From IMG/VR virus record IMGVR_UViG_3300046333_000090: a stretch of 64,000 bases of DNA, one strand, 5' to 3'. Shown here piece after piece: positions 8,875-53,428 of the stretch (its first letter is position 1; the number at the start of each line of letters is the position of its first letter). Made by a program: the position numbers and the translations under genes. The notes beneath the pieces were generated by a model that saw only the letters and a list, made by a program, of their open reading frames with translations, was not told the origin of the DNA and made no database searches. Source of the DNA: a virus.

Positions 8875-9243
8875 TTATCTATCTCTCACTAAGTTTACAG
8901 TGAATGAATCTGTTTCTTCCAGTTGTTTAATAGTGTATTCTAGATAAACAGATAATGTAATATTATCATCTTCTAAAATAACTTCTATTTTTTCTATAAT
9001 AACACGATTCTCCCATAACGTCAAGGAGGTTCTGATCTCTTCAAGTATTTCGTTCCCAAGATTGTTGTCTGCAACTTCAAATAAATATTTTGATAGTGAT
9101 GTACCGTAATAAGGTTGGAAAATTGCACTACCTCTTTCGGTGAGTATAATATTTTTTACTGATGCTTTTACGGCTGCTTTTGTATTTAAGATTGTGATAT
9201 CGTGACTATTAGTTTGGCTGAATGATAAATCCAAGTCTGGCAT
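8875..9243 (-). CDS. gp25: Baseplate wedge gp25 (GPW/gp25 family)
   Basis: DLDLSF...AVKASVKNIILTERG...FQPYYG...LFE...WENRV. Confidence 0.9.
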   Translation of the reverse strand: MPDLDLSFSQTNSHDITILNTKAAVKASVKNIILTERGSAIFQPYYGTSLSKYLFEVADNNLGNEILEEIRTSLTLWENRVIIEKIEVILEDDNITLSVYLEYTIKQLEETDSFTVNLVRDR

Positions 9244-9283
9244 AATTTTTATGTTTTGATACTAATAGTCATATTTAGAGTTT

Positions 9284-10012
9284 CTATGCGGTGTAGGGCA
9301 TTCTAGACCCCTCTGGGAGCATAATAGGTTGTTCCCAAGATGCTTGATTTTCTAAATGTGCTTCAATTAATTGGTCTAGTTTTATCTGATGTTTTGGTGA
9401 GAATTGGATAGTATGATCTGGCAACCAATTAGGAGTTTCTTTGAGGTATCGTTCTGGCAATACTAAACCTGATTTGATGCCGAACTGATAGTGAATATTT
9501 TGAAGGTAATTTATTGATTGTGAACCAAAACTTATTCTCTCACCATTTACTCTTGGCATACGAATTTGTGTTTTATAGCTACTACTACCACCATTAGCAC
9601 ATTTTATACCAATAGGGAGTCCAGATGACTTCTTCATTAATGCTATATTAAACCATTGAGTGACTACTTCTAAATTAGATAATTTGTTATTACTAGGATC
9701 TCCGTCGATATGATTGATCACCCAATTATTATTAGTCTTCAATCCAACTATTAATTCATGAATTTTTACAGTTTGTCCATTTTTATATGTTAGAAATCTA
9801 CCTGTATTATTAGGATTAAAATTATATAGTTTTAATAGATCTACTTTATCAAGATCTATAGAATTAGTATATAATATACCAGTATTAGTATTGAGTACAT
9901 ACAGTTGGTCATAAGTAAAGAATTGATTATATATTAAATTGTAACCATTGTCTACATTATGATGAGGTTGATTGAACTGCCATAAATCCAGCGTTGTGTC
10001 GTAGTAAATCAT
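9284..10012 (-). CDS. HNH endonuclease, expanded family copy A (intact)
   Basis: INHIDGDPSNNKLSNLEVVT HNH motif; start set at MIYYD by alignment with paralogues. Confidence 0.85.
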   Translation of the reverse strand: MIYYDTTLDLWQFNQPHHNVDNGYNLIYNQFFTYDQLYVLNTNTGILYTNSIDLDKVDLLKLYNFNPNNTGRFLTYKNGQTVKIHELIVGLKTNNNWVINHIDGDPSNNKLSNLEVVTQWFNIALMKKSSGLPIGIKCANGGSSSYKTQIRMPRVNGERISFGSQSINYLQNIHYQFGIKSGLVLPERYLKETPNWLPDHTIQFSPKHQIKLDQLIEAHLENQASWEQPIMLPEGSRMPYTA

Positions 10013-10100
10013 TTTAATATAATAAAGTATATAATCATCATAACACAGATATTGATGTATCGCAATCATAAATATCTATAGAATTATTAAATTTAATAGA

Positions 10101-11957
10101 ATGAAGATCTCCCCGTTGACTAATCTCGACTACGAAAGCATTAAAACAGATCTAAAGCTATTTTTGAAAGATAACACTACATTTAGTGATTATGACTATA
10201 ATGGTTCAAATATCACTCAACTGATAAATTTGCTTGCGTATAATACATTTCTAAGTCAGTTTCAACTCAACTTAGCATTAAATGAATTATCGTTAGAAAC
10301 TGCAACATTACGAGATAATGTCACAGCTAAAGCGAATGAACTCGGATACACACCTAACAACTATTCTTCAGCACTTCTAGATTTGCCACTCACGTTCACC
10401 GTTCCCGCTGGTGCAAAATTTGTAGAGATTCCATCAGGAATAATGTTTGTCGGCACTAAATCTACAGACAACATTGGTTACACATTCAATAATGTAGATA
10501 GAAAGATCTTGCCAGCAACAAATGGTAATGTAACAACTACATTAACGCTAAGTGAAGGTGTATTGCTAACAAATTCTTACATTTATGGTGAAGAAGATGC
10601 AGATCGAATCATTCTGTTCAATGACAAAATCGACATCAACACAATTCGAGTTACATCAAATGGGATAAATTATACTAAATTTGACCGAAATAACGCTACA
10701 GATACAACATTCTATGTCTCTTTAATACAAGATCAAAACATAGAAATTCAATTTGGTGGTAATATTTTGGGAAAATCTCCGAATATTGGTGATACGGTAA
10801 CAGTATCATACCTCACTAATAATGGTTCTAATGGTAATAATATTAATCAAGGTACATTTGTAGGAAACATCAAATACTACTTTGACAACAATGCAATTGG
10901 TATAATAGTACCATTAGGAGATATTACAGTAGGAACAATTGCTGTTAGTAGTGGTGGGACAGATAGCCAGCCGCTTAAACAGATCAAATTTAATGCTAGA
11001 AATTTGTATACTGCACAGGATAGAGCAGTAGTAGCTAGTGACTATCAAGCGTTGTTGATAGAACATTTCCCTTTTATCAACTCAGTGATGGTCATTGGTG
11101 GAGAAACATTAGTACCACCAAGATACGGTCATGTGAAGCTAATTATACAAAATAAAGATGGAAATAAGCTGAATCAAGTACAGAAAAACAATATATTACA
11201 ATTTTTGAAGCGATACAACTTAACAAATATAATCATCATAGAGGACGCAAAGTATACCAAATTGAAGATCCGATCTTATATCAAATATGATCTGAAGAAA
11301 TTGCCTACTTATATCGATAAACTAATAGAAAAAATTAGTACTGCAATAAACGATTACGTCGCCACAGAAGACTTTGCTAATGGTTTTTATGGTAATAGGT
11401 TAGAATCAATCATTTATAATTTGGACAAATCCATCCTATCGGCAAAAATTAAACTAGTGCTAGTGGATGAGTTGAGTAGTAATAATGGTAATTATAAGGG
11501 AAATATTGGCAACAAGATTAAATCAGATAACTGCAAATTATTTTCCCTGATGAGTAAATCCTATAATCAGAATGGGACAAACTATAGAATTGTGTCTGTA
11601 GGAGATAGTGGAATAGTAGAGAAGCAGAAGTATACATCGGATGGGGATGTATATTCTTGGAATATGGATTCCAATGTAGGTACGATAGATCCTAAAACTG
11701 GCGAATTTGATCTAAATGTGGATACTAACGATCTAACTATTGTGACTATACCAGATACGCTAGACATAGATAATACTGGGGGTATATTAGTGCCAGTAGT
11801 ATTGCCCCCAGTGGTGTCTGTTGATGATATTGTAATCATTGATGATATTTCCATAGAGGAAGAAGTAGTCGATCCAGTAGTGATAGATGTGGTAACGCCA
11901 ATCGATACGGTAGTGATTAGCGATATTATTCCAATTTTGTCCAATATTGTTTGTTAA
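10101..11957 (+). CDS. gp6: Baseplate wedge gp6
   Basis: LDYESIKTDLK...FSDYDYNGS...LAYNT; AQDRAVVASDY. Confidence 0.92.
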   Translation: MKISPLTNLDYESIKTDLKLFLKDNTTFSDYDYNGSNITQLINLLAYNTFLSQFQLNLALNELSLETATLRDNVTAKANELGYTPNNYSSALLDLPLTFTVPAGAKFVEIPSGIMFVGTKSTDNIGYTFNNVDRKILPATNGNVTTTLTLSEGVLLTNSYIYGEEDADRIILFNDKIDINTIRVTSNGINYTKFDRNNATDTTFYVSLIQDQNIEIQFGGNILGKSPNIGDTVTVSYLTNNGSNGNNINQGTFVGNIKYYFDNNAIGIIVPLGDITVGTIAVSSGGTDSQPLKQIKFNARNLYTAQDRAVVASDYQALLIEHFPFINSVMVIGGETLVPPRYGHVKLIIQNKDGNKLNQVQKNNILQFLKRYNLTNIIIIEDAKYTKLKIRSYIKYDLKKLPTYIDKLIEKISTAINDYVATEDFANGFYGNRLESIIYNLDKSILSAKIKLVLVDELSSNNGNYKGNIGNKIKSDNCKLFSLMSKSYNQNGTNYRIVSVGDSGIVEKQKYTSDGDVYSWNMDSNVGTIDPKTGEFDLNVDTNDLTIVTIPDTLDIDNTGGILVPVVLPPVVSVDDIVIIDDISIEEEVVDPVVIDVVTPIDTVVISDIIPILSNIVC

Positions 11958-12019
11958 TAAGTCGTTTGTCCATAAAAAATAATAGTAATGACAACATTAC
12001 TATTATAACATAAATATTT

Positions 12020-12445: not shown

Positions 12446-12635
12446 TTTATTTTTTTTTGAATCTGACTATATTTATATCAAATTGTTACATGTTTCCATG
12501 TTCTGCCGACTGTGATTCCAATCACTACCGCGACCGCGGTAGTAGTATCAAATTATTCAAATATGCTAATTAAAATCATTTTGGATATATCATTGGTGAC
12601 AGCTGCTTTGCAGCATTTCTCACCAATGATATGCC

Positions 12636-15784: not shown

Positions 15785-15819
15785 TTTTATATTTTGATAC
15801 TTGTATTCATATTTAGAGT

Positions 15820-16115
15820 TATGGTGCGTTGTGGGGCATCCTAGACCTCTCTCAGAGCAGAATAGGTTTACCCCATGTTGCTTGATTCTCTAGATGTGCT
15901 TCAATTAATTGATTTTGACATACCTCCCTGTGCTAAAGCATCGCTTCGCTCAGGGATTCCTCTGCGTTTCTCAGAACAATTGCTATCTAATTACCCCGTA
16001 AGGGGTTTTTACCCAAATCTCCGATAAACTATCTTTTTATTAGCATTTTTTTATATACATTATGATTAGGTTGATCGAACTGCCAAAGATTTAATATTTT
16101 ACAGAAATGAATCAT
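15820..16115 (-). pseudogene. HNH family copy B: only the 5' and 3' ends remain, interrupted by an IS200/IS605 right-end remnant
   Basis: MIHFCKILNLWQFDQPNHN start at 16115; QLIEAHLENQATWGKPILL end near 15850-15912. Confidence 0.8.
15915..16045 (-). mobile_element. IS200/IS605 right-end / TnpB omegaRNA-type remnant (PATE-like)
   Basis: - strand ...GGAATCCCTGAGCGAAGCGATGCTTTAGCACAGGGAGGTATGTCAA: hairpin plus TCAA end. Far boundary approximate. Confidence 0.65.
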
Positions 16116-16157
16116 AATTTGCTAATATAAAGTATATAATCATTATAACACAAAAAA

Positions 16158-17951: not shown

Positions 17952-17956
17952 ATACA

Positions 17957-22157: not shown

Positions 22158-22319
22158 TCATTCTTTGTCAAGTACTATTTCTGAATCAATATCTATGCAC
22201 TCTTGCTTCTGCTCTAATATGTTCTGTTCTTTTAATAAATTGTATAATTCTCCTAATTGTATGTCTCTCTCAACCCCCTCTAGATCGATGATACGAACAA
22301 TACTACAAGATGAAAGCGA
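22158..22319 (-). other. Split-intein N-fragment 2 (short, Ser1; 53 aa including an acidic tail)
   Basis: EQEFE|SLSSCSIVRIIDLEGVERDIQLGELYNLL; same site and pattern as the AceL/GOS TerL short IntN. Confidence 0.82.
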
Positions 22320-24569
22320 CTCAAACTCCTGCTCGAATTGTTTAGCACTCGTATTCGCGATGGTCATTCGTTTAAATTCCGCATCTCTTCCTGGAATCAT
22401 ATCCCATGTAATCTCTACTGGCACATACTCATTCTTACCATTCTTTGCATCAACAAAAATACGATAAAATAAGTTTAGCCCACGGGGGGTTTGTTCACCA
22501 ACAAATCCATTATAGATAACGGAATGACACCAAGGATCGTTAGGAACATTATCTAGAGAAAAATCATATAACTGTTCGATGTGGTCGTCATTAATCCGAC
22601 GAATTTTAGTCCACAACAAATCCGGTCTAACATTCAATTCAACAAATTCGCTAACACTACTATTAATTACAGATTGAATGATTGGTAATTTTTTAAGAGC
22701 ATTTTGTCGATTCATGTGTACATATTTGTGTTGTCCCTCCCCATTAAAAGCAAAATATTGTTTAATATATTTCTTTTGTGTTTCTAATGGGAGATGTTGT
22801 TTAATGAATGGAATAAAAAATGGAATAGAATCACTCTGTTTACGAAATTTTCTGATATTAGTCTGATAGCAATTCCATTGTTGTTTGTGAGGATGTTTAA
22901 AATTAATTATTTCAAAAAATTCTGGGGTGTAGCAATTTGGTATCTTCAGCAAAGTGCGACGAGAGTATCTCATTTTTCTTCTCATATGCCAATAATATCT
23001 TCGTTGTTCATATAACCCCTTTTTGATAGAATTAACCACACCAATATTCAATAATAATAGGTGTATTTGTTCCAATAGGTCTTCATTAGTATTAGTGATG
23101 TATATATCACCATAATTGTTATTTTTTTTACGATGATTCACTAGTGCCATACTATCGAAGCATCCTTGGAGAAAGGTAACAGTATTAATTTTAGACCACC
23201 GAAGGGGAATATCAGTTAGACCATTTCCAAAAGTAGTATACTTATCAGGAGAAGTGTACTTCAATTTTTTTAATACACTGGCTAGTTCAATTGAATCTAT
23301 AATGTAATTAACCCCATCAAACTCATAATCCAGTCCAATATTTTTTATGGCATCATCATAACAATCCTCATCCAAATATCCACTATCCGTAATACGAAGA
23401 GTCAGAGTAATAAATCTGCCATCAGTTATATAACCACTACCAGCATATATACCAAAAAAATAAGCAAATTCTGGAGTAACTATTGGGAATTTTTCAGAAT
23501 CTAATGTATCCAAATTACCAAATATTTGAGTATTATATCTGACTGCAATAAAATCATTAGGTTCCAACTCAGATGCCCTAAACCAACCATATTTGCCTTG
23601 CTTACAGGCATAAAGTTTATGAGTAGTCGAACACTCCAATTCAGTAAAATTAGTATATATTTTTCTAACGTTTGATTTACCGTTATTACACATAACAGTA
23701 CCTTTATTATTTCCCTTCATACCCACTAATTCATATGGTGGGATATGATATGATTTTTTCTCTAATTGATCTTTAATAAAAGTTTCGATGCGAGTATAAC
23801 CTTTAGTGGTGAGAATATATGTATTTTTCACTACACAAGAAGTGATAATTAATTTAGATTCTTTAGATGACGAAATAGTAGGATATACCGAGGTCATAAA
23901 CTCTTCTTGGATACCATTAGGGACGAATGCGAATTCGTCGCAAAATACGATATTGAAGGTAGACCCGCGAACAGAGGTGGCACTGGTGGATGAGGCTAAT
24001 ATTTGAGAACCATTTTCAAGTTCGATATGTGTTTTATTCCATTGTATTACTCCTTGTTGTAACCACATTGGCAAATTTTCATATGCCATTTGTAGTCTAC
24101 CTAATAGTTCCATAGATAGATCTCTTTTGTTTGCTAATATTGCAATATTTTGATGAGGTTTAAATAGTGCGACCCAGAGGGCATAGCAAATCATCGTAGT
24201 CGAGTTATGTGAAACTATATTATTGGTGATGTAGAGGTCATCTTCTACATTCAATAAATCATACATATTTTCAATATTATCTGATTCATTAATAGCAAGA
24301 ATTATATCAGGATACAAATATCCACCATCATCCATTACCAATATCTCGTCCCCAACTATTAAATCTACTAGTTTAGTTTCTTCATACTCATCTTTATCAT
24401 TCAATCTAATTAGAATATGATCGTCAGCACAAGATAGATGATATTGGGTGGTGTATACGTTCCAAACATTATATTTAATAGTTTGCCCTACTCCAGCAAA
24501 ATCTTTATATCCAGTAGGCGTTAGTACTTGCCAATCATTAGTATATTTTTCTTGTACAAACTCAGCCAT
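22158..24569 (-). CDS. gp17: Large terminase gp17, middle fragment: IntC - ATPase part - cis intein - extein - IntN
   Basis: Exteins STTMICYALW...ILANK...LENGS...VRG...FCDEFAFVP...IITS|TPRGLNLFY...FEQEFE; intein motifs at both ends and internally. Confidence 0.92.
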   Translation of the reverse strand: MAEFVQEKYTNDWQVLTPTGYKDFAGVGQTIKYNVWNVYTTQYHLSCADDHILIRLNDKDEYEETKLVDLIVGDEILVMDDGGYLYPDIILAINESDNIENMYDLLNVEDDLYITNNIVSHNSTTMICYALWVALFKPHQNIAILANKRDLSMELLGRLQMAYENLPMWLQQGVIQWNKTHIELENGSQILASSTSATSVRGSTFNIVFCDEFAFVPNGIQEEFMTSVYPTISSSKESKLIITSCVVKNTYILTTKGYTRIETFIKDQLEKKSYHIPPYELVGMKGNNKGTVMCNNGKSNVRKIYTNFTELECSTTHKLYACKQGKYGWFRASELEPNDFIAVRYNTQIFGNLDTLDSEKFPIVTPEFAYFFGIYAGSGYITDGRFITLTLRITDSGYLDEDCYDDAIKNIGLDYEFDGVNYIIDSIELASVLKKLKYTSPDKYTTFGNGLTDIPLRWSKINTVTFLQGCFDSMALVNHRKKNNNYGDIYITNTNEDLLEQIHLLLLNIGVVNSIKKGLYEQRRYYWHMRRKMRYSRRTLLKIPNCYTPEFFEIINFKHPHKQQWNCYQTNIRKFRKQSDSIPFFIPFIKQHLPLETQKKYIKQYFAFNGEGQHKYVHMNRQNALKKLPIIQSVINSSVSEFVELNVRPDLLWTKIRRINDDHIEQLYDFSLDNVPNDPWCHSVIYNGFVGEQTPRGLNLFYRIFVDAKNGKNEYVPVEITWDMIPGRDAEFKRMTIANTSAKQFEQEFESLSSCSIVRIIDLEGVERDIQLGELYNLLKEQNILEQKQECIDIDSEIVLDKE
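22491..23837 (-). other. Contiguous intein (449 aa) in TerL: Cys1, C-terminal Gln, Thr+1, degenerate LAGLIDADG domain
   Basis: IITS|CVVKNTYILT...TTHKL...LYDFSL...GFVGEQ|TPRG. Confidence 0.85.
24204..24569 (-). other. Split-intein C-fragment 1 (122 aa, ends SHN, Ser+1) at the TerL Walker A site
   Basis: VLTPTGYKDFAGV...CADDH...MYDLLNVEDDLYITNNIVSHN|STT. Confidence 0.88.
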
Positions 24570-24629
24570 TTTATTAAATTTAATAATTCTATACTGATAT
24601 TTATTGGTGTGTTTTTAATTATTAAATTT

Positions 24630-24668
24630 AATAATGACCTCCTAAAATCAATTAGGAGGTCATTATTT
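24630..24668. terminator. Hairpin terminator between HNH copy C and the TerL middle fragment
   Basis: AATAATGACCTCCTAA-N6-TTAGGAGGTCATTATT. Confidence 0.75.
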
Positions 24669-24734
24669 TATGATTTGATACTAGTAGTCATATTTGTGAT
24701 TTTTATGCTCTGAGAGGGGCATCCTAGACCCCTC

Positions 24735-25433
24735 TCAGAGCATAATAGGTTTATCCCAAGTAGCTTGATTTTCTAGATGCGTTTCAATAAGTTGTTCTAG
24801 TTTTGATTGATGTTCTGCTGTGAATACAATATTAGGATCTGGCAACCAATTAGGTACTTCTTGTAAGTATCTTTCGGGAGTGACTAATCCAGATTTTACT
24901 CCAAACTGATAATGCAAGTTTTGTAAGTAATTGAGATCTTTATAACAAAAATTTATATGTTTACCATTTACTCTTGGCATAGCAATTTGTGTTATATAGC
25001 TACCATTATTATATGTTGCACCAATAGGGAGTCCAGATGACTTCTTTTGTATTAATATGTTAAACCATTGAGTAACTACTTCTAAATTAGAACGTTTATT
25101 ATTACTAGGATCGCCATCTATATGATTAATTACCCAATTAGCATTAGTTTTATATCCATATACTAACTCATGAATTCTTACAGTTTGTCCATCTTTTTTT
25201 GTACTAAATCTACCTCCACTATTATGATACCAATTATATAGTTTTAACAATTCTACTTTATCAAGATCTATTGTGTTAGTATATATTTTACCAGATTTAG
25301 TATTCAGTACATGTAACGTTTCATCTACAAATAGTTGATTGTAAGTAAGTTTACCTGCATATAGTTTATTGAGATTATGGTGAGGTTGATCGAATTGATA
25401 GAAATTGAGTATTTTGTCGCAGAAATGTATCAT
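24735..25433 (-). CDS. HNH endonuclease, expanded family copy C (intact)
   Basis: MIHFCD...QFDQPHHN; INHIDGDPSNNKRSNLEVVT. Confidence 0.88.
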   Translation of the reverse strand: MIHFCDKILNFYQFDQPHHNLNKLYAGKLTYNQLFVDETLHVLNTKSGKIYTNTIDLDKVELLKLYNWYHNSGGRFSTKKDGQTVRIHELVYGYKTNANWVINHIDGDPSNNKRSNLEVVTQWFNILIQKKSSGLPIGATYNNGSYITQIAMPRVNGKHINFCYKDLNYLQNLHYQFGVKSGLVTPERYLQEVPNWLPDPNIVFTAEHQSKLEQLIETHLENQATWDKPIML

Positions 25434-25844: not shown

Positions 25845-27068
25845 ATGTTAAAATTACTTCCGTCATTACAGCAAAATATAGGAAATTTGGTAGAAACACC
25901 AGATGGTTTCGAGAAATTTATGGGAGTGCAGAAAATTTATAGAAATAAATATATAGAATTAGAATTCTTAGACGACAATAAATTAGTTTGCTCACTTAAT
26001 CATCCGATAAACACCACAGAAGGTATAATATTAGCTAAAGATCTCACTAAAACTATAGAAATAATTGGAAAAGTAAATAATACTTTTCTTAAAACAAAAA
26101 AAACTATAAGAAAAAAAATAGAATTATATGATATTGTTAATTCTGGCAAGAATCATTGGTATTATGCGAACGATATATTAAATAAAAACTGTAGCTTCAT
26201 AGGTTCATCGCTCACCCTTCTTAATGCCAATAAATTAGCAGCATTAACCCATAAAGAACCAATAGAAAGAAATGACAATATAGTTGTCTACGCAAAACCA
26301 AATCCTACGCATAGATATATGATTTGTGCAGACACCGCAGAAGGTGTTGAAAAGGATTATTCAGTAGCAATGGTGTTTGACATCACTACTGTACCATACA
26401 CCATAACAGCTATTTATAAAAACAATAATATTGCACCAATAGTATTCCCCAACATAATATTGAAATTGGCGAATGAATATAATAAAGCTTACGTTCTTGT
26501 AGAGTTAAACAGCATTGGATCACAAGTAGGAGATATTCTACATTACGATCTAGAATATAGCAACCTACTTATGACAGCCACCGTGGGACGAAACGGGTTA
26601 ATTCTAGGTCAAGGATTCGGTAATAAGTGCAAATTTGGATTACAAATTACTAAAACTACAAAACGACTAGGTTATAGTAACATGAAATCTTTGATTGAAG
26701 ATGATAAATTACTAATAGAAGATTTTGGTATTATTAGTGAATTATCAACATATGTAGAAAAAGGGGATTCTTATGCAGCAGATGATGGTAGTAATGATGA
26801 TCTAGTAGCTTGTATCGTATTATTTTCTTGGTGTGTTACCCAGCCGTATTTCAAAGAACTTACAGATTTAGACGTAGCAAAAGATATTCGGGAATTACAC
26901 AGACAAGAAATAGAAGACGACATGGCGGTATTAGGTGCTTTATTGATAAATGGAGAAGAATTAGAAGATGGTATTGTGGAAGAAGGTGGAGATCTGTGGT
27001 GGAATGCTAAGTTAACTGACAGTTATTATGAGTACGGGTACGAGGTGCCAGTTATTTATTACTTTTAA
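25845..27068 (+). CDS. gp17: Large terminase gp17, C-terminal fragment: IntC (25845-26189, 115 aa, ends NKN, Cys+1) plus nuclease domain
   Basis: VETPDGFEKFMGVQK...SLNHP...LYDIVN...DILNKN|CSFIGSSLTL; RuvC-like ADTAEG..DYS, VELN..G, NDDLV; late promoter CTAAATA at 25814. Confidence 0.92.
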   Translation: MLKLLPSLQQNIGNLVETPDGFEKFMGVQKIYRNKYIELEFLDDNKLVCSLNHPINTTEGIILAKDLTKTIEIIGKVNNTFLKTKKTIRKKIELYDIVNSGKNHWYYANDILNKNCSFIGSSLTLLNANKLAALTHKEPIERNDNIVVYAKPNPTHRYMICADTAEGVEKDYSVAMVFDITTVPYTITAIYKNNNIAPIVFPNIILKLANEYNKAYVLVELNSIGSQVGDILHYDLEYSNLLMTATVGRNGLILGQGFGNKCKFGLQITKTTKRLGYSNMKSLIEDDKLLIEDFGIISELSTYVEKGDSYAADDGSNDDLVACIVLFSWCVTQPYFKELTDLDVAKDIRELHRQEIEDDMAVLGALLINGEELEDGIVEEGGDLWWNAKLTDSYYEYGYEVPVIYYF

Positions 27069-27120
27069 TTGCTTACTATAATTATAGTTTTCGTGCGTTG
27101 TAGGGCATTTTAGCCATCTC

Positions 27121-27525
27121 TCAGAGTATAATTGGCTGCTCCCAAGTAGATTGATTCTCTAGATGTGCTTCAATTAATTGATCTAATTTTGTTTGATGTT
27201 TTGGTGAGCATTGTATGGTAGAATCGGGTAGCCAATTAGGAACTTCTCTGAGGTATCTTTCTGGAGTAACTAATCCTGACTTTACTGCAAAATGATAATG
27301 TATGTTTTGTAAGTAATTTATATATTTAGAACCAAAAGTCATAGCTTTACTATTTTTTCTTGGCATAGCAATATTTGTTAGATAACTACCGCCACTAACA
27401 ATTATTTATAGATCGTCTATAAATAATTGATTATATGTTAATTTTAATTTTTATTTTCCATTATCTACATTATGATTAGGCAGATTGAACTGATAGAGAT
27501 TTAATGTTTTGCAGAAGTGGATCAT
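27121..27525 (-). pseudogene. HNH family copy D, internally deleted (HNH core lost)
   Basis: MIHFCKTLNLYQFNLPNHN start and QNIHYHF...HLENQSTWEQPIIL end retained. Confidence 0.8.
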
Positions 27526-27564
27526 TTTTACCAATATAAAGTATATAATAATTATAACACATAA

Positions 27565-27864
27565 ATGCAAAAAAAACAGGTTTATATTATCTTTAATGAA
27601 TTATTAAATTTAATAAAAATAGGAGTCACCAACAACATTCCTCGCAGACTAAGGCAACTTGAGTGCAGTTCTGGATGCAAACTAGAACTATACTATCATA
27701 CTGAACCGATATATAACGCAACCAAAATAGAAAAGTCACTGCATCAGTATTTTAATTTAAAACGAAAAGAAGGCGAGTACTTTTTTATAAGCGCAGAAGA
27801 AGCAAAAGAAAAATTGTTATTTATGATATCTAACTTGACTAAAGTATATACAGACAATTTATAA
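27565..27864 (+). CDS. T5orf172/Mug113-type GIY-YIG domain protein
   Basis: VYII...IKIGVT..IPRRLRQL...IEKSLHQYF...GEYF. Confidence 0.8.
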   Translation: MQKKQVYIIFNELLNLIKIGVTNNIPRRLRQLECSSGCKLELYYHTEPIYNATKIEKSLHQYFNLKRKEGEYFFISAEEAKEKLLFMISNLTKVYTDNL

Positions 27865-29893: not shown

Positions 29894-29927
29894 AATAAAA
29901 TGCCCTCAACTATGAGGGCATTTTATT
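29894..29927 (+). terminator. Terminator after gp18
   Basis: AATAAAATGCCCTCA-N4-TGAGGGCATTTTATT. Confidence 0.75.
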
Positions 29928-30002
29928 GTATTAGATGCTAGTAGTCATTATTCTAGTTATCATGCGTTGAGGGGCATTCTACACCCCTCTCAGCGCATAA
30001 TA

Positions 30003-30190
30003 TTAGATATCAGGAAAATTTAAGTGTGCAAATTGTTTATGATGTATTTTCGCAGCATCATCATAAGCTTTAGCTGCTTCAATTTCAGTTTTAAACCTTC
30101 CTAATCGGTACTTGGTCTTATTTGCAATTATTGTTGCCATCCAGGTATTATTACGAGAATCTAAATAGTATCGAATAATATAGACATTTA
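30003..30190 (-). pseudogene. AP2-domain C-terminal fragment of a gene interrupted by IS607
   Basis: WMATI...YRLGRFKTEIEAAKAYDDAAKIHHKQFAHLNFP. Confidence 0.75.
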
Positions 30191-30202
30191 AGTCTTTACT
30201 AC

Positions 30203-31423
30203 TCATTTGTAAGTTTTTATCCTTACTGGGTGTACTACTAAACCCTCTATCCCATTGCTGAACACGTTTGGGATTGCTTTTCTCATGATATTATAACTAC
30301 CATTTATGTCTGCATTAAATTTCAGACCACTCTTGGCTTTGTATATCCCTCGTTGCAGTCTTCTACCGCTGAACTGGCGTTTTACACCTGCACTGTAAGT
30401 AGGAATTGAATCTGCATCTAAGAAACTTGCTTTACTTGTATAACTCTCTTCTTGTTCGATAAATTTTATACCTACCAATTCACATTTGTAATGCAGTTTG
30501 GCTATCAAATCATTAAATGGTACTTGAACGAAGTTCTGGTTATTTTTACTCCCTATATTGATGTTTTGTTTCCATCCATTGTTTTTACCTACTACCAATG
30601 TGCCCACATCATTTTCTATCAATGTCCTTACAATAGTTGTACTAGCTTTATGTAAATAATCACTAATTTTGTTTCCTCTCTTATTGTAAAGCCTTCTGAT
30701 CCTCTTACTACTACCACCTTTCAAGATTGATTGTAGCTGCGCTAATCTCTTGTTGAAAAATTGGTTAATTGATTTTAGAGGATTCCCACTTAACAGCATT
30801 GGCTTAGTTCCAATTTTATTAAATGTAAGTGCAACCAAATTACTCAGTCCTAAATCTATAGCTGCTACGTTTGCTTGGTCTAATCTCAAATCAACAATTG
30901 ATTTTTCGTAAACTATTTCTACTACATAATGCTCCAATTTTGGCACAATTCTAACTTGATCGATTTTCTCATATGGGATATCTGTTTGAACAAATATATT
31001 GGTACCAGATGGATTAAGTAGTCCATCCTTGGTTAAGCTGCGCTTAGAAATAGCTTGATTAGAGTAAGAAGTTACATTTCTACCAGATTCAATTTTATGA
31101 TATTTTGGAATTTTTGGACACGCATTAAATTTAGATGGATTGCTTGTAAAAGATTTGATAGCCTGAAAGTAAGATTTCCAATTTTTATCAAGACCCATCA
31201 GGACATGTTGGGACACTTTCGCCGGAAGCGAAGTATAATCAATAGTACCCTGAACAAGCTTTAATATCTTGTAATAATTAAGATAACCAGTACCAGCAAA
31301 TATAGATTGTCTAATTATATAATTTGCATAGTTATATAAATTCTTAGATAAGAAACAAATAGAATCTAACTCATAATAAAATGGATGATTAGAGTAGAAC
31401 TTATGTTGTTGAGTTAGTTTCAT
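30203..31423 (-). CDS. tnpB: TnpB RNA-guided endonuclease (IS607 type)
   Basis: SKNLYNYANY, IDLGLSNL (RuvC-I), VVGKNNGWKQ, EESYTSK, NADINGSYNI. Confidence 0.92.
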   Translation of the reverse strand: MKLTQQHKFYSNHPFYYELDSICFLSKNLYNYANYIIRQSIFAGTGYLNYYKILKLVQGTIDYTSLPAKVSQHVLMGLDKNWKSYFQAIKSFTSNPSKFNACPKIPKYHKIESGRNVTSYSNQAISKRSLTKDGLLNPSGTNIFVQTDIPYEKIDQVRIVPKLEHYVVEIVYEKSIVDLRLDQANVAAIDLGLSNLVALTFNKIGTKPMLLSGNPLKSINQFFNKRLAQLQSILKGGSSKRIRRLYNKRGNKISDYLHKASTTIVRTLIENDVGTLVVGKNNGWKQNINIGSKNNQNFVQVPFNDLIAKLHYKCELVGIKFIEQEESYTSKASFLDADSIPTYSAGVKRQFSGRRLQRGIYKAKSGLKFNADINGSYNIMRKAIPNVFSNGIEGLVVHPVRIKTYK

Positions 31424-31979
31424 CAGAATTAATAATATTTACAATTTGACAAGATTTTCTAGTTCTTCTACGAATAGAATATAGTCTAGCACAGAAAGAA
31501 GTAATAATGCTAACAAAATCTTGCATAAGATCATCAGTACGTTCGGTACAAATATTAACCACATCAATAGATTTGCCTTGTTTAGATAGTAGAACATCTA
31601 GATAATTAAACCCAACTCTAGTAAGGCGATCTTTATGTTCTACAACTATGATATCATAGTTATCAGAATTAAGCAAGTCAATAAATTTACGTCTATGGTC
31701 ATTAACGCCAGAACCAACTTCTTTAATAATTTTAACAATAGAATAACCTTTTGATAAACAATAGGATTCTAAGCGTTCCACTTGAGTGTCCAGATTAGAT
31801 TTATTTTGAGAAGAAGAGACTCTGGTATATATAACTGCATTTTTAGTAGGAGTGGTAGGTGGATGAACAATAATAGTACCAGTAGGGAGTTGGGTGGCGG
31901 ATAGAGTGCCAGATTTCCACATACGCCAAGCAGTTTTGTAGGAAATACCAAGAGAAGAGGCGTAAGTAGATAACTTCAT
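31401..31979 (-). CDS. tnpA: IS607 TnpA serine recombinase
   Basis: N-terminal HTH; YTRVSS...LDTQ...EVGSG...EHKDRLTRVGF. Confidence 0.94.
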   Translation of the reverse strand: MKLSTYASSLGISYKTAWRMWKSGTLSATQLPTGTIIVHPPTTPTKNAVIYTRVSSSQNKSNLDTQVERLESYCLSKGYSIVKIIKEVGSGVNDHRRKFIDLLNSDNYDIIVVEHKDRLTRVGFNYLDVLLSKQGKSIDVVNICTERTDDLMQDFVSIITSFCARLYSIRRRTRKSCQIVNIINSDETNSTT

Positions 31980-32934: not shown

Positions 32935-32949
32935 TTATTAAATTTAATA

Positions 32950-32985
32950 AAGCCTTTCTAGATGACTCTAGAAAGGCTTATTTTT
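32950..32985 (+). terminator. Terminator after gp19
   Basis: AAGCCTTTCTAGA-N4-TCTAGAAAGGCTT followed by T-rich sequence. Confidence 0.75.
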
Positions 32986-33046
32986 ATATTCTGACACTAG
33001 TAGTCATTATTATAGTTTTCGTGCGTTGTGAGGCATCCTAGACCTC

Positions 33047-33760
33047 TCTCAGAGCAGAATAGGTTTACCCCATGTTGCTTGATTCTCTAGATGTGCTTCA
33101 ATTAATTGATCTAATTTTGTTTGATGTTCTGCTGTGAATACAATATTAGGATCTGGCAACCAATTAGGTACTTCTTGTAAGTATCTTTCTGGGGGACACT
33201 AAACCTGATTTGGTTGCAAATTGGTAATGAATATTTTGAAGGTAATTGAGATTTTTAGAACCAAAACTTATACTTTTTCCATTTACTTTTGGCATCCTGA
33301 TTTGTGTCACATAGCTACCAACATAATTAGTATATTGTAACCCAATAAATAAACCAGAAAACTTTTTCTTTATTGTTGTGTTGAACCATTGAGTCAATAG
33401 TTCTAGATTGGAACGTATATTATTACTAGCATTACTATCTAAATGATTAATTACATAATTTTCATTAGTCTTCGCTCCAAATACTAGTTGATGAATATAT
33501 GTATTAGCACTATCAGTTCTTGTCTTAAATCTACCACTACTATCAAGATTAAAATTATATTGTTTTAGAATATCTACTTTATCAAGATCTATAGAATTAG
33601 TATATATTGTACCAGATTTAATATTGAGTAGATGTAATTTGTCATGTAAAAATAATTGATTATATATTAATTTGTAATTACCATTATTTACATTATGGTG
33701 AGGAAGATCGAACTGCCATAATTTTAGTAATGAATCAAAGTGAATCATATTACTACTCAT
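33047..33760 (-). pseudogene. HNH family copy E, frameshifted near 33190
   Basis: INHLDSNASNNIRSNLE motif; the family C-terminus continues in another frame after LVSP. Confidence 0.8.
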
Positions 33761-34740: not shown

Positions 34741-35439
34741 TTATGAATGATGTGCCCATGTTCTCCCATATTTAATACCATATATCGCCCCCTGACTGAT
34801 ATTATAAAGTTTGGCAATATATACACAAGTATGACCATCTCTTAATAATATTTTTATTTCCTTTACTGATATATTATTAAGTATTGCTCTTGGATTGTTT
34901 TCTCCACTATATTTACCAATTCTTGCATCAGAAATTTTTTTCTTAGATTCTTCTGTATGATTTTTTCCAAATCTATTATGATTACTTCCAATTTTACCCA
35001 TTGCAGAATTGGACATTTTTTTCTTAGATTCTTCTGTATGAGTTTTACCAAAAAAAGTATTATCTTCCCCACAAAATTTTCCCGTCCTGGCATCAGATAA
35101 TTTTTTTCTATGTTCTTCTGACTTAGGGATTCTGGCATTAGTTCCTGGCGGACTTCCTGCTGTTCCATGAGATATATTATTACAACCATGTTTTCCTATA
35201 TTTTCTTTAATTAATAACTTTTCCGCCTTTTTTAATTCTATAGCTGTATTAAAAAATTGAAGTTCAGTTCTATGTAGTAATTTTTTATTTTTTATAGATC
35301 TCACCCAATTTCCAGATCCTTTATATGAATCTTTAGTGGGGTCTTTATCTGATGAATGCTTGCCGACGTAGTAATCGTTACTCCCTTCTAAAGTTGTCTT
35401 GTAGAGGTAATTATACTTTTTTTCTTTAAATTCAGCCAT
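34741..35439 (-). CDS. GIY-YIG homing endonuclease with NUMOD3 repeats and HTH
   Basis: YLYKT...YYVGKH...YKGSG; FGKTHTEESKKKMS repeated. Confidence 0.88.
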   Translation of the reverse strand: MAEFKEKKYNYLYKTTLEGSNDYYVGKHSSDKDPTKDSYKGSGNWVRSIKNKKLLHRTELQFFNTAIELKKAEKLLIKENIGKHGCNNISHGTAGSPPGTNARIPKSEEHRKKLSDARTGKFCGEDNTFFGKTHTEESKKKMSNSAMGKIGSNHNRFGKNHTEESKKKISDARIGKYSGENNPRAILNNISVKEIKILLRDGHTCVYIAKLYNISQGAIYGIKYGRTWAHHS

Positions 35440-41938: not shown

Positions 41939-42395
41939 ATGCCTTGGACAAGAACAAAATCATATTATCACAAAATGAACGATATATGTTTTGATACAAA
42001 CCATAAACAGTATCATATGTATGATGCTGTGGGTATATCAGTAGAACTGCGATGGAAGTCAAATTTTGACTCATTTTACGAGGACATGGGAAAATGCCCA
42101 GAAAATTTAAGATTGTGTCGTAAAGACCGAACAAAAAACTTCAACAAAGATAATTGCCACCAGAAAAGCAAACGCAAAACCACAAAGCGAACACCAGAAA
42201 AAAGTAGTATCAGAGTTAATGGCTAAAAAATATATACTTACCGTTCCTAATGGAGTAGAACACCATATCACTAATTTATTGCAATTTTGTTTATTAACAC
42301 CAGAATTGGGTAAGAATGCAAGTGCAAATTTAACAAATGTAGCAAATGGAAAATTAAATCATTACAAGAAGTGGAGAGCAAGAAGAGTTGAATAG
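41939..42395 (+). pseudogene. Decayed homing endonuclease (degenerate HNH part plus separate C-terminal DNA-binding fragment)
   Basis: GISVELRWKSNFDSFYEDMG.CP...KDNC, then MAKKYILTVPNG...NLLQFC...NHYKKW in another frame. Confidence 0.55.
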
Positions 42396-42398: not shown

Positions 42399-42434
42399 AA
42401 AAAGACCTCCTAATTGAGTTTAGGAGGTCTTTTT
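42399..42434. terminator. Bidirectional terminator at the strand switch
   Basis: AAAAAGACCTCCTAA-N6-TTAGGAGGTCTTTTT; same stem core as 24630. Confidence 0.8.
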
Positions 42435-42608
42435 ATTAAATTTAATAATTAATCAAAATGTTCATCATACCACCAGAATTGCATAGTAGTATAAAAAAAA
42501 AATTTATCGGTAGTGATAATATTATATGGAGTGAACATCAAGTTTTTCCAAATAATTAGAGAATATTTAAAGTCGCTCCAACCAAACATAATTTGTCTAA
42601 ACGACCAT

Positions 42609-43355
42609 TTATATGGAGTCATTTTTTAAGCCTTGTAATTTAATATTATTAACATAAGCTTCAATAGGTATATCCCAAGTTGATTGATTTTCTAGATGCG
42701 CTTGAATTAATTGGTCTAGTTTTATCTGATGGTCTGGTGAGAATTGGATAGTATGATCTGGCAACCAATTAGGAGTTTCTTTGAGGTATCTTTTTGGTGT
42801 AACTAAACCTGATTTAGTGCCGAACTGATAGTGAATATTTTGAAGGTAATTAAGTTCTTTGGCACCAAAATTTATACATTTGCCATGTATTCTTGGCATG
42901 GCAATTTTTGTTAGATAGCTAGTACCACTATTATTATATCTTATACCAATAGATAGTCCAGATTTTTTCTTCATTAACACTGTATTAAACCAATGAGTAC
43001 ATAATTCCAAATTAGACAATATATTGTTACTAGGATCTCCGTCGATATGATTGATTACATAATTGCGATTAGTTTTTACTTCATATACTAATTCATGAAT
43101 ATATACAATTTGACCATTTTTACCTGTATTAAATCTACCTTCATTATCAGCACAAAAATTATATTGTTTTAATAGATTTATTTTATCTAGTTCTACAGTA
43201 TTGGTATAAATTTTGCCAGTCTTTGTATTGAGTACATAAAGTTTATCATCTACAAATAATTGATTATATGTTAATGCACCAGTATGGGATTTATATATAT
43301 TATGATGAGGTTGATCAAATTGATAAAGATTGAGTGTTATGTCAAAGTGAATCAT
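42609..43355 (-). CDS. HNH endonuclease, expanded family copy F (intact)
   Basis: MIHFDITLNLYQFDQPHHN; INHIDGDPSNNILSNLE. Confidence 0.88.
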   Translation of the reverse strand: MIHFDITLNLYQFDQPHHNIYKSHTGALTYNQLFVDDKLYVLNTKTGKIYTNTVELDKINLLKQYNFCADNEGRFNTGKNGQIVYIHELVYEVKTNRNYVINHIDGDPSNNILSNLELCTHWFNTVLMKKKSGLSIGIRYNNSGTSYLTKIAMPRIHGKCINFGAKELNYLQNIHYQFGTKSGLVTPKRYLKETPNWLPDHTIQFSPDHQIKLDQLIQAHLENQSTWDIPIEAYVNNIKLQGLKNDSI

Positions 43356-44721: not shown

Positions 44722-45378
44722 TTATTGATGTTGCCAAGATTTTCCATTTATTATTCTATAAATGGTTTTTCTATTGACATTAAACGTTGTTGCTATTTGT
44801 TTTTGAGAAACATTTTTTTTATATAGTATCTTAATTTCTTCGATATCCTTTTCAGTTAATTTTGCACATCCATTTTGTATACCAATATTTTTTCCCTTCA
44901 CTGATTTAGATATATTATCTTTATGTTCTTTTGTTAGAGATTTGCCCTTTTTCGCATCAGATAATTTCTTTTTAATTTCATTAGACATAATATGTCCAGG
45001 TTTAAACCCACTGGAAGAATATATCATGTTCATACAATTCACGTCACTATAATGTTTTTCTATCCACAACTCTTCTGCTATATACAAATCTTCTATCGAA
45101 CTGTATATGCCTAAAATTATTTTGGATAATTTATTTTTATCTTTAATTTTTCTAATCCAAACACCCGAACCAAAATACCCGTCATTTAATATATCTTTTT
45201 TTGTTGTTGAGTGTCTGCCGATATAATACTTATCATTCCCTTCCAATAATGTTTTATAAACGTAATGAGTAACCACAAATTTTTTAATAAAATATACATA
45301 TATATTTATTAAAAAAATGTAGTTACCTGATGCCCCATATAGGTTTACTCCCCAATAGATTTTAATCGTTTTTCCCAA
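44722..45378 (-). CDS. GIY-YIG homing endonuclease with NUMOD3 and HTH (true start probably internal)
   Basis: HYVYKT...YYIGRH...GYFGSG; C-terminal HTH. Confidence 0.8.
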   Translation of the reverse strand: MGKTIKIYWGVNLYGASGNYIFLINIYVYFIKKFVVTHYVYKTLLEGNDKYYIGRHSTTKKDILNDGYFGSGVWIRKIKDKNKLSKIILGIYSSIEDLYIAEELWIEKHYSDVNCMNMIYSSSGFKPGHIMSNEIKKKLSDAKKGKSLTKEHKDNISKSVKGKNIGIQNGCAKLTEKDIEEIKILYKKNVSQKQIATTFNVNRKTIYRIINGKSWQHQ

Positions 45379-47248: not shown

Positions 47249-48052
47249 TTAAGCAGAGTGTAATAATGATATTAATTGAATAGATTCATTTTGATAATGC
47301 TGTTTTCGAGCAGCAGAATAAGCAGCAGCAGTAGCAGAATCAGCAGCAGCAGAATAAGCAGCAGCAGTAGCAGTAGCAGAATAAGCAGCAGTAGCAGAAT
47401 AAGCAGCAGCAGAAGCAGAATAAGCAGCAGTAGCAGAATCAGCAGCAGCAGTAGCAGTAGCAGAATCAGCAGCAGCAGTAGCAGAATAAGCAGCACAAGC
47501 AGCAGAATAAGCAGCAGCAGTAGCAGAATAAGCAGCAGCAGCAGTAGCATAATCAACAGAATAAGCAGCAGAACGAGCAGCATACCATTCGTTTTTACTC
47601 ACTTCCTGTATTAATGCCTTTTTATGTAATTCTGCTACATCTACTATACACTCATCATTACTAAATCTGATTACTCCTCGTTCTGGATCTAATAATCTCC
47701 ATATAGCTAATTTGTGTAATACTGGTTGTAAACACACTCCTACTGGTATAGCTTGTATAGATTCTAAAGGAAATCTCATAGCATCATCATTAGGCAATCC
47801 TTCAAATATATTATCAAATAAATAGCATATCCATTCTGGTAATCCAAAAAAATTACTCATATCTTTATGAGAATTAGAATGAATGCAACAACCTACATGA
47901 CACCCCTTACCATTTTGCCAATAGTGACCTTTAATTATTTGATCGTGGGCATAGTGGGATTGTAGTTGATATAGGAGATCTTGTTTGAGTTGGTCATTAC
48001 CATAGAAAGATAAATTATTGTAACGAGTGTAGGAGTGGGTATAGTCGATCAT
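47249..48052 (-). CDS. Early protein with an Ala-rich tandem repeat tract
   Basis: N-terminal GKGCHVGC domain, then (A)nYS/DS repeats; sigma70 promoter upstream. Confidence 0.75.
   Translation of the reverse strand: MIDYTHSYTRYNNLSFYGNDQLKQDLLYQLQSHYAHDQIIKGHYWQNGKGCHVGCCIHSNSHKDMSNFFGLPEWICYLFDNIFEGLPNDDAMRFPLESIQAIPVGVCLQPVLHKLAIWRLLDPERGVIRFSNDECIVDVAELHKKALIQEVSKNEWYAARSAAYSVDYATAAAAYSATAAAYSAACAAYSATAAADSATATAAADSATAAYSASAAAYSATAAYSATATAAAYSAAADSATAAAYSAARKQHYQNESIQLISLLHSA
47308..47583. repeat. Imperfect tandem repeat (GCA)n-GTA/GAATAA encoding A/T/Y/S
   Basis: About 14 units of gcagcag(tagcag)aataa. Confidence 0.9.
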
Positions 48053-48076
48053 GATGATTAATGTGATGATATAGTT

Positions 48077-48105: not shown

Positions 48106-48154
48106 CTATTAATTTTGTGGTATGAGAGGGGTCTAGAATGCCCTGTAAGGGGGG

Positions 48155-48367: not shown

Positions 48368-48602
48368 AGAGATAATCCTAAGAGTAATAAAGTTAACGGT
48401 TCCTTAGACCAACATATCCAAGATGTCCTATTTAATAGAATCTAAACAATTAGATTTATAGAGGTACAGACTAGGAAAATATCTGAACGTATATACCAGG
48501 ATATGTATTGTAGATGTGGTCTAACCACAAATGATCTAGACAAGACTTGAGTTAGATATATTGTTATATCCAAGCCACGGGGTTAACCCCGTGGTTCTTG
48601 AC
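48368..48602 (-). ncRNA. IscB omegaRNA, copy 2
   Basis: GTCAA start, CCACGGGGTTAACCCCGTGG hairpin, immediately 5' of the iscB remnant. Confidence 0.8.
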
Positions 48603-48603
48603 C

Positions 48604-51333: not shown

Positions 51334-52077
51334 CTAATAACTTCTACCATTAGCAGCAAGATTAAGGGAACCGTTGTATAGATCAGAATGATTTCTATAC
51401 ATGCTTATTGCTACCCAATTCTTAAAATTGGCATATTTGATAGAAAAACTCCAATAATTATTTTCAGAAGTATTTCTCAGCACATCTATTAATTTTAATA
51501 ATTTGCGATCTTCTTCTATCACAGAGGCTTTGTTTTTATTAAAAGCATATAAGAAAGATACCCCTCCTTGTAATAATTCTTCTTTATCAAAAAACTCTAT
51601 ATATCTTTTTTCTAATGTAATGTAATTATGCAAATCGTCATATGCACTTACCAGTTTCTTATTTTCCTCCCAATGATAATTAACAATATATAAAGGACTA
51701 CGCTCAAAAATTTGTGGAACAATATTGTCTTTCAAATTATATTCAGGAGCAGAGTTTAAATAATAATGATTAATAGGTCTACCAATAATACGACAACAAA
51801 GATTTTCCAGATGACATTTGTATCTATGTTGTCTAATCTTATCTCTAAATTCTTTCTGGCTGCTTATATTAATAATATCGCGAGAAACATACATCTTTAA
51901 TGTGTGTCCAGACAACAAATAATGTAGTTTATCATCAATATTCAGTAGATGCAAGAAAGCATTAATAGTGGCTAATGTTTTTAGCCTAATCGGATAATAC
52001 TTATATTGATCGGAATCATCACTAGTCGTAGAAATTTGTAATACTGTTGGTTTAACAAACTTTATAAAATATGCCAT
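51334..52077 (-). CDS. Hypothetical protein between gp47 and gp46
   Basis: 247-aa ORF, no recognised motif. Confidence 0.55.
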   Translation of the reverse strand: MAYFIKFVKPTVLQISTTSDDSDQYKYYPIRLKTLATINAFLHLLNIDDKLHYLLSGHTLKMYVSRDIINISSQKEFRDKIRQHRYKCHLENLCCRIIGRPINHYYLNSAPEYNLKDNIVPQIFERSPLYIVNYHWEENKKLVSAYDDLHNYITLEKRYIEFFDKEELLQGGVSFLYAFNKNKASVIEEDRKLLKLIDVLRNTSENNYWSFSIKYANFKNWVAISMYRNHSDLYNGSLNLAANGRSY

Positions 52078-52092
52078 ATTACTTTCCTAAAT

Positions 52093-53118
52093 TCATACTA
52101 TTTTCTGGTATATATTCTTTATAATCGACATCACCGTATCTATATCGTCTATGTCTATACTTTGCACATATTCTTCAAACAATTCTAGAGTAGAATTGTT
52201 TGAAATTGCTTCATCAGTAAATTCTACATCACTGATATTTTTAACCAATTGTTCTACTATTTTAACACTGTATGCAACAGAAGTCAATCTTTCCACATAA
52301 CTATCAAAATCTTGAATTCCATCTAATCCCTTCACTATTAACTTTACCACACAATCCCTATAGGATTCTAGATCAATAGGTGTTAAATATGGTTCATAAT
52401 AGACAGTTTGATAAAGTTTATAAGGATTTCGTATAAACTTTGTTTTTAGGGTGGTAGTATCGAGTACAGTTAATCCTCTAACCGCATTCTCATCACCAGC
52501 ATTCATTTCTCCAAATATACCAATATAGTGAATATTTTGGTAAATAGATCTGAAATGAATATGACCAGATAACACCTTAGTATATTTGGAGAAAATATTG
52601 GGATCTGTGCCATGAGTGAGGTGGTGTCCTGGTAACAACATGGCACCATTGACCTCTAAGTGGGCAAATGCAATTTTTGATTTAGTATCGTCAATAAATT
52701 TGACAGTATTATCATAATTACTAGTATTGATCCAAGGAATCAAATCGATACTAGTTCCACCAATATTAATAGTCGCACATTCTGAATAAGTATTGATATT
52801 TGTATACTCACCTAATACTAAATCAATAGAATTAATATGGTTCGAGTCTTTATAATACAGATCGTGATTACCAGTAATGATATGTATCTTTTTATCTTTT
52901 AGTTTATCTAGTACATATGTTTTAGTTTGATATATGGTATGTAGTTCAAGTGATTTGCGGTTATCAAAAAAGTCACCTAATTGGATGATGGTATTGATAT
53001 TATTTTCTTCTATGTATGGAAGAAAAATATTGTCAAACCACTTTAAGAAATAATTCCAGTGCATTGGATCGGATTTTCTTACACCCAGATGGAGATCTGC
53101 TAAAATTGCTACTAACAT
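52093..53118 (-). CDS. gp47: Recombination nuclease gp47 (Mre11/SbcD-like)
   Basis: DLHLG, GDFFDNRK, GNHD, PWIN, HLE, SGHIH. Confidence 0.95.
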   Translation of the reverse strand: MLVAILADLHLGVRKSDPMHWNYFLKWFDNIFLPYIEENNINTIIQLGDFFDNRKSLELHTIYQTKTYVLDKLKDKKIHIITGNHDLYYKDSNHINSIDLVLGEYTNINTYSECATINIGGTSIDLIPWINTSNYDNTVKFIDDTKSKIAFAHLEVNGAMLLPGHHLTHGTDPNIFSKYTKVLSGHIHFRSIYQNIHYIGIFGEMNAGDENAVRGLTVLDTTTLKTKFIRNPYKLYQTVYYEPYLTPIDLESYRDCVVKLIVKGLDGIQDFDSYVERLTSVAYSVKIVEQLVKNISDVEFTDEAISNNSTLELFEEYVQSIDIDDIDTVMSIIKNIYQKIV

Positions 53119-53149
53119 TATTCTTTCTCATCCTCTAGTGGTGGTTCCA

Positions 53150-53428
53150 TGTTGTCTGGTTAGCTATATGTGTCCCAATTAATTGGTCTAATTTGATCTG
53201 ATATTCTGGTGAGAATTGGATAGTACTATCAGGCAACCAACTAGGAACTTATTTGAGATATCTTTCTGGCGATACTAATCCTGATTTTACTCCAAACTGA
53301 TAATGTAAATATAATTTGTCACCACCAAACCATTGATTATAAATTAATTGCTTAGTAGATCCATTATTTACATTATGATTGGGTTGATCGAATTGCCACA
53401 AATTGAGTATAGGATCGAAATGAATCAT
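53150..53428 (-). pseudogene. HNH family copy G, miniature with internal deletions
   Basis: MIHFDPILNLWQFDQPNHN start joined to LHYQFGVKSGLVSPERYL...WLPD. Confidence 0.75.

Follow-up and report, generated by a model that had tools for sequence, protein, structure and literature searches.

The window analyzed here, a stretch of 64,000 nucleotides from the virus record IMGVR_UViG_3300046333_000090 of IMG/VR, comes from a distant T4-like phage; it has ~31% G+C, and genes of one HNH endonuclease family lie scattered in it between unrelated genes. Our analyses indicate that these genes are probably the product of a lineage-specific expansion of a single free-standing homing endonuclease family, whose cassette spreads and then decays in place. 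Phage homing genes of this kind are known, and the present case is a crowded version of them; it is not, as a preliminary description of this DNA had proposed, a transposon with derivatives resembling miniature inverted-repeat transposable elements (MITEs). The same description also proposed a self-spreading cassette at many non-allelic intergenic sites, and this part is supported by the grouping of the copies by phage lineage; spread to non-allelic sites is real.

With the three intact proteins as tblastn queries, the HNH family was found at exactly seven places in the window, all in minus frames. As previously described, three copies are intact (A, C, and F), one is frameshifted (E), and three lack the nuclease core (B, D, and G), and the N-terminal and C-terminal motifs said to be shared are present in the copies. 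The full copies are 73-79% identical to one another at the DNA level. The seven copies, with the tblastn match first and the extent of the feature second, are as follows.

Copy A, minus strand, 9287-10069, intact; cassette 9246..10052, made of a putative extended -10 promoter (10022-10047), the open reading frame (ORF), and a 3' block.
Copy B, minus strand, 15825-16156, miniature; 15787..16157, between gp14 and gp15, with a 3' block that reaches the gp15 ATG.
Copy C, minus strand, 24738-25433, intact; 24666..25433, ORF 24735-25433 plus 3' block, upstream of the N-terminal piece of the terminase.
Copy D, minus strand, 27094-27549, miniature; 27078..27566, promoter block at 27536-27561 and a degenerate 3' block.
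Copy E, minus strand, 33022-33748 in two frames; 32980..33760, full length with one frameshift near 33170-33192, and a 3' block with a mutated promoter motif.
Copy F, minus strand, 42612-43355, intact; 42609..43355, ORF with a divergent C-terminal tail, having neither promoter block nor 3' block.
Copy G, minus strand, 53144-53434, miniature; 53144..53434, between gp55 and gp47, having no 3' block.

The ORF of copy A starts at 10012 or 10069 and ends at 9284; the usual TGA has been lost, so that the frame reads 14 codons into the 3' block, which itself stops 2 nt short of the gp25 ATG (9243). The neighbors of the copies are unrelated to one another and lie in both orientations (gp25|gp6, gp14|gp15, the terminase pieces, gp19, gp23, and gp47|gp55), in keeping with the earlier account. 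The minus-strand position of all seven says little when taken by itself (p ~0.055), because 66% of the genes in the window are on that strand, but co-orientation recurs in a relative, where seven of seven and two of two matches on two contigs share one strand. Four further copies (P0006, P0008, P0010, and P0042), found among protein clusters, are listed with a 156,966-bp contig, which brings the genome-wide count called for in the preliminary description to at least 11, six of them intact; the relative carries six intact copies within 59 kb.

In a maximum-likelihood tree, all copies of the window genome and of L001, the nearest relative, form one clade (support 99/93), and those of the other lineage form another (100/100). 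Among paralogs, synonymous substitutions per site (dS) amount to 0.34-0.73, as compared with 0.79 for gp15 and 1.27 for gp14, two flanking core genes compared between the window and L001; the copies are younger, or more recently homogenized, than the split from the nearest relative. Identity between copies is also mosaic: pairs whose identity elsewhere is 62-80% contain tracts that reach 91-95%, which shows gene conversion between copies, and the exchange tracts cluster near the 3' end. The ratio of nonsynonymous to synonymous substitution (dN/dS) among intact copies is 0.28-0.55, which shows purifying selection and indicates that the intact copies encode working proteins. Together, these data point to a gene family whose members are copied to new sites, or overwrite one another by conversion, or do both, before decaying in situ.

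The gp14|gp15 site provides a view of one insertion in several states, the intergenic gene being present or absent among relatives. In L001, whose gp15 is ~91% identical to that of the window, the site is filled, as it is in the window, and holds a full-length HNH copy that shares both the 5' and the 3' junction of copy B and has four premature stops (three TAA and one TAG). Reassignment of a stop codon in L001 was considered and rejected, since two different stop codons are involved and the HNH copy alone is affected. The empty sites that had been sought in related phages exist in the more distant L109 and L111, where spacers of 64 and 34 bp separate the two genes. In L110, whose gp15 is 83% identical to that of the window, the site is occupied by an unrelated insert of ~490 bp (L110:2007-2500) with broken frames, followed by the hairpin and CTCTAAATA block discussed below. 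It was also observed that gp15 of L001 changes frame near codon 150 (L001:1946), through either a real frameshift or an assembly error.

About half of the copies are decaying in place, through nonsense mutations, a frameshift, and independent internal deletions. Copy B keeps 23 N-terminal codons and the last ~20 codons around a 141-bp filler; copy D has a clean deletion of about amino acids 50-142, which leaves an N-terminal remnant with stops and a C-terminal ORF of 81 amino acids (27121-27366); in copy G, 49 N-terminal codons are joined in frame to about codon 176 (a deletion of about amino acids 49-176), with stops after the junction; and P0042, outside the window, has lost its first ~70 codons while keeping its promoter. 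The four junctions differ, so that these are four independent events and not the amplification of one defective element. Likewise, the full-length pseudogene with identical junctions in L001 indicates that copy B arose in place. The small ORFs seen at B, D, and G should be annotated as remnants of genes. The filler of copy B (15912-16052, minus strand) is richer in G+C, contains a small hairpin (CCCCTTACGGGG), and has no match elsewhere in the window or in the fetched loci.

The protein consists of an N-terminal beta region, an HNN-type His-Me finger (HNH_3), a probable AP2-like domain, and a two-helix tail. Copies A, C, and F score 29.0, 33.1, and 28.4 bits against HNH_3 (PF13392), above the Pfam cut-off of 24.8, and also match HNH families of PHROG with E values down to 1e-13. 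No variation is seen among 34 family members at residues N103, H104, N111, N112, and N116; B, D, and G have lost the HNN motif. The family has a narrow membership, with just seven of 1.84 billion 50%-identity clusters scoring below 1e-30, and the remoter matches are HNH_3 proteins with sub-threshold AP2 domains. Although Pfam AP2 itself finds no match in the family, an hhalign comparison aligned amino acids 39-166 with HNH_3-AP2 proteins at 99.7% probability, the alignment entering the first AP2 strands. The full-length AlphaFold model was poor (predicted local distance difference test, pLDDT, 51) and its fold search uninformative (Z <=3.3). On the other hand, the structure prediction that had been suggested for the C-terminal domain gave, for the last 103 residues, a model with a pLDDT of 86, in which three strands and a helix forming a beta-beta-beta-alpha core are followed by two more helices. 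In two independent fold searches with this model, AP2/ERF structures were repeatedly among the best matches, although with low scores (7et4, E 0.24; 2gcc, Z 3.8; 5wx9, Z 3.6; 7wq5, Z 3.4), so that the C-terminal domain is most likely, as modeled, a divergent AP2-like DNA-binding domain with a two-helix tail. The only solved structure matched by sequence, around the HNN motif, is I-HmuI of Bacillus phage SPO1 (PDB 1U3E; E 0.017), a nicking monomer with an extended DNA-binding C-terminal part; weak as the match is, it suggests by analogy that the same may apply here, although I-HmuI is intron-encoded and ends in a helix-turn-helix instead of an AP2-like domain.

Upstream of the genes, the block TGTGTTATAATnATTATATACTTTAT occurs three times in the window as compared with 0 expected, before A, B, and D, exactly the three copies for which a common promoter block had been reported. 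In both lineages, a putative extended -10 promoter (TGTGnTATAAT) is found ahead of copies (A, B, D, P0006, P0042, and those in L001, L003, and L005), which argues that this promoter belongs to the gene. Downstream, copies A-E have ~75 bp in common after the stop codon, slightly more than the ~60-70 bp first noted. This 3' block opens with a hairpin that takes in the final codons and the stop codon in its 5' arm, and continues with CTCTAAATA and an A-rich leader, which in A and B reaches the next ATG (gp25 and gp15, respectively), placing CTCTAAATA ~30 nt before those start codons. Because many of the late genes of this phage have TATAAATA or CTAAATA 25-35 nt ahead of them, it is plausible that CTCTAAATA is the late promoter of the next gene; the claim that A and B supply such promoters to gp25 and gp15 thus holds for the position of the motif and is likely for its function. 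Copies C, D, and E carry mutated versions of the motif (in copy C, from CTAAATA to ACAAATA). D and E have no co-oriented gene directly after them; after C comes the N-terminal terminase piece, for which a separate AATAAATA motif is present further downstream. The hairpin of copy C has a perfect 16-bp stem (-33 kcal/mol), and strong folding, better than that of shuffled sequences, was found in 3 of 10 blocks; conservation of the hairpin as an RNA structure was therefore rejected for most copies, and no RNA family of Rfam was detected in the blocks.

The core of the block, GGTCTAGRATGCC, occurs nine times in the window as compared with 0.08 expected, and several occurrences lie away from the HNH genes, as follows.

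29905..30206, minus strand: an AP2-only ORF of 67 amino acids (30003-30206), which is probably left over from a further HNH-AP2 gene; a complete 3' block with a hairpin of -20 kcal/mol comes after it.
58330..58372, minus strand: solo hairpin motif and CCCTCTAAATA, between an ORF of 161 amino acids and UvsW, both non-homing genes.
61536..61585, plus strand: solo hairpin motif and CCCTAAATA, between an ORF of 544 amino acids and one of 61 amino acids.
48115..48150, plus strand: solo core motif, with a putative TTGACA early-type promoter on the opposite strand for ORF 47249-48052.
55168..55205, plus strand: solo core motif, with a putative TTGACA early-type promoter on the opposite strand for ORF 54198-55127.

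The last two have a layout like that of the promoter-early stem-loop (PeSL) elements of RB49-type phages, and the two hairpin sites listed before them precede other genes. Because the 3' block is found after the AP2-only ORF and after the unrelated cargo of L110, and its core motif alone at four further sites, the block does not belong to the HNH gene only; it is a regulatory cassette with a genome-wide distribution. Copies of the other lineage instead abut the usual TTGACTTTAAT promoter of that phage and lack this core motif.

This regulatory cassette raises an alternative in which cassette shuffling drives the spread and the HNH gene is mere cargo, the regulatory blocks acting as portable homology through which phage recombination moves neighboring genes, possibly by way of small circles. 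Such shuffling has been shown experimentally for PeSLs (PMC2839356), and it would account for a block lying behind three kinds of cargo (the HNH family, the AP2-only ORF, and the L110 insert), for the excess of the core with two occurrences in the hairpin and TTGACA layout, for the clustering of exchange tracts near the 3' end, and, indirectly, for the replacement of cargo at one site between L110 and the window or L001. We nevertheless regard it as unlikely, since the 5' and 3' blocks differ, leaving the cargo without the direct-repeat flanks of PeSL mini-circles, since F, G, P0006, and P0008 have no block, since the other lineage expanded without this motif, and since the endonuclease is the cargo far above chance. 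We find it quite improbable that the endonuclease, or a subset of its copies, recognizes the 21-nt core GAGRGGGGTCTAGRATGCCCC of the block instead of a unique gene sequence and so homes next to any copy of this repeated terminator/late-promoter block; if it did, this would be a repeat-targeted, effectively transposon-like form of homing that also redistributes late promoters genome-wide.

Ancient independent homing, in which each copy would be orthologous to same-locus copies elsewhere, is marginally less probable again. Two sites are indeed shared between genomes, gp14|gp15 (with L001) and the position behind a gene for a 322-amino acid protein (with L003). At the latter, however, P0042 and P0030 follow orthologous genes and still fall into separate lineage-specific clades, and paralog dS lies below the ortholog dS of the flanking genes. 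Moreover, the last 131 bp of E are 92% identical to B, whereas the 3' end of B is ~82-85% identical to its positional orthologue in L001. The preliminary description had named a closest match of each copy to a same-locus orthologue as the pattern that would contradict a spreading cassette; the copies group by lineage instead.

A true transposon, with full-length copies mobilizing MITE-like miniatures through shared ends, would explain why B, D, and G keep both ends and why the copies are co-oriented and share promoter and 3' blocks, yet it is close to refuted by the absence of terminal inverted repeats (an alignment of the 40 nt at one end with the reverse complement of the 40 nt at the other scores 8-10, equal to shuffled controls) and of target-site duplications (words common to the 15-nt flanks are at most 0-4 nt long), by three different junctions in B, D, and G with no miniature found twice, by the full-length positional orthologue of B in L001, and by shared 3' ends that belong to a general regulatory cassette. 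To our knowledge, HNH-AP2 proteins have not been described as transposases. The palindrome TTATTAAATTTAATAA was considered as an element terminus and rejected because it is a genome-wide motif, with 29 sites in the window at <=2 mismatches as compared with ~1 expected (e.g. 10084-10099, 24571-24586, 32935-32950, and 42433-42448), mostly directly before start codons or after stops; its presence accounts for some short flank similarities between different HNH copies.

Expansion of a homing endonuclease family therefore remains the favored explanation, and its steps may be pictured as follows. The unit that multiplies would be the expression cassette, that is, the extended -10 promoter, the ORF, and, in this lineage, also the 3' block. 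The cassette would arrive at a new site either when a double-strand break is repaired ectopically, as a rare event, or when recombination takes place through short regulatory sequences that are shared; ordinary allelic homing between co-infecting phages would then fix the insertion. Loss of the nuclease core, offered in the preliminary description as the alternative to MITE-like miniatures, fits the data better than those do; the ends would survive decay because they carry the promoter or leader of essential neighbors, and larger deletions would hit these neighbors.

Several points weigh against this explanation. The clustering by lineage could arise from gene conversion alone, without recent insertions. 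Database listings, and not a reading of the 157-kb contig, place the four copies beyond the window in the same genome. The cassette is not uniform, as F, G, P0006, and P0008 have no 3' block, and both the extended -10 and the late-promoter assignments rest on consensus matches only. Finally, the filled and empty states are known for the gp14|gp15 site only, the comparison being limited by the small number of close relatives. Scans of IMG/VR and metagenomes with gp15 and gp55 yielded almost no close relatives, and no database record of the exact gp15 protein was found. Among 50,697 GenBank phage records, neither the region nor the HNH protein had a match by megablast or tblastn, the capsid protein (58% identity to cyanophages) being the sole protein of the window with a GenBank phage match.

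Dispersed, decaying HNN-AP2 families and promoter-bearing homing genes have already been described; what sets the present case apart is the density and youth of the series and its link to the hairpin/late-promoter block. For example, the Xanthomonas phages Xp10, Xop411, and OP1 each carry six to eight copies of one HNN-AP2 family, placed differently in related phages, and intact, truncated, and degenerate forms coexist, some keeping only the C-terminal DNA-binding part, as is the case here; spread by duplication or transposition and gain followed by decay have been proposed for these copies (PMC2248197). The authors of that work reported no conserved flanking sequence (PMC2248197), whereas the genes described here have their own promoter and, in one lineage, the hairpin/late-promoter block. 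The present genes also differ in residing in a T4-like myovirus and in encoding a probable AP2-like domain that has diverged too far for Pfam to detect it and is extended by two helices. In T4, the mob (HNH) and seg (GIY-YIG) genes are likewise intergenic paralogs between conserved genes (PMC2988022). Promoters of essential downstream genes can be tied to T4-type endonuclease genes, favoring their retention, transposition-like moves to new sites have been proposed, and decayed copies such as mobA are known (PMC2988022); the premise of the preliminary description, that free-standing homing genes normally move only to the cognate allelic site, is thus too strict. The T4 paralogs are, on the other hand, old and very divergent, whereas here at least 11 copies with 60-77% protein identity show tract exchange and a graded series of decay, and the downstream promoter lies in a repeated block behind the ORF and not inside it as in T4. 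The 3' block resembles the PeSLs of RB49/phi1-type phages (PMC2839356, PMC4122927), which are short cassettes repeated between genes in which a stem-loop of the GGGG...CCCC type is joined to a promoter that runs up to the start codon of the following gene; both are associated with variable cargo genes and with insertion, deletion, or replacement between relatives. However, PeSLs carry promoters of the sigma70-type early class and flank ORFans on both sides, whereas the present block is of late type (TAAATA) and lies only 3' of the cargo; unlike PeSLs, it has a conserved loop sequence, and most of its copies no longer fold well.

Free-standing homing genes have usually been studied as single, site-locked elements, and both their spread to new sites and the diversification of their targets have mostly been inferred from old and very divergent paralogs such as mob and seg of T4. 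The present phage lineage provides a young and dense series in one genome, from intact through nonsense-hit or frameshifted to core-deleted copies and on to block-only sites that are possible relics. With filled, empty, and replaced states of one site at hand, both the cycle of gain, spread, and decay and the role of linked promoters become testable.

Other features of the window were also noted. A second homing-endonuclease-like family with NUMOD3 motifs comprises two full genes (34741-35439 and 44722-45378, both minus strand) and one N-terminal fragment (6929-7156, plus strand); one member also has a helix-turn-helix, and relatives occur in L002 and L006. Two nuclease fragments adjoin HNH copies, one of 99 amino acids and T5orf172/MUG113 type beside D (27565-27864, plus strand) and one of 95 amino acids and HNH type beside F (41939-42226, plus strand). 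The large terminase is split over opposite strands (22158-24569, minus, and 25845-27068, plus): the piece of 803 amino acids holds Terminase_6N and an intein with a LAGLIDADG domain, and that of 407 amino acids holds Terminase_6C and has copies C and D on its two sides. In the gene for the UvsW-type helicase (55884-58322, minus strand, ~812 amino acids), a large intein-like insert separates the helicase motifs. An IS607-like pair (30203-31979, minus strand), made of a serine recombinase (31401-31979) and TnpB/OrfB_IS605 (30203-31423), lies between the genes for the tail sheath and the tail tube. A second TnpB-like ORF (62863-63999, plus strand) runs off the end of the window, and a single tRNA gene is located at 62481-62553 on the plus strand (Rfam RF00005, 48 bits).

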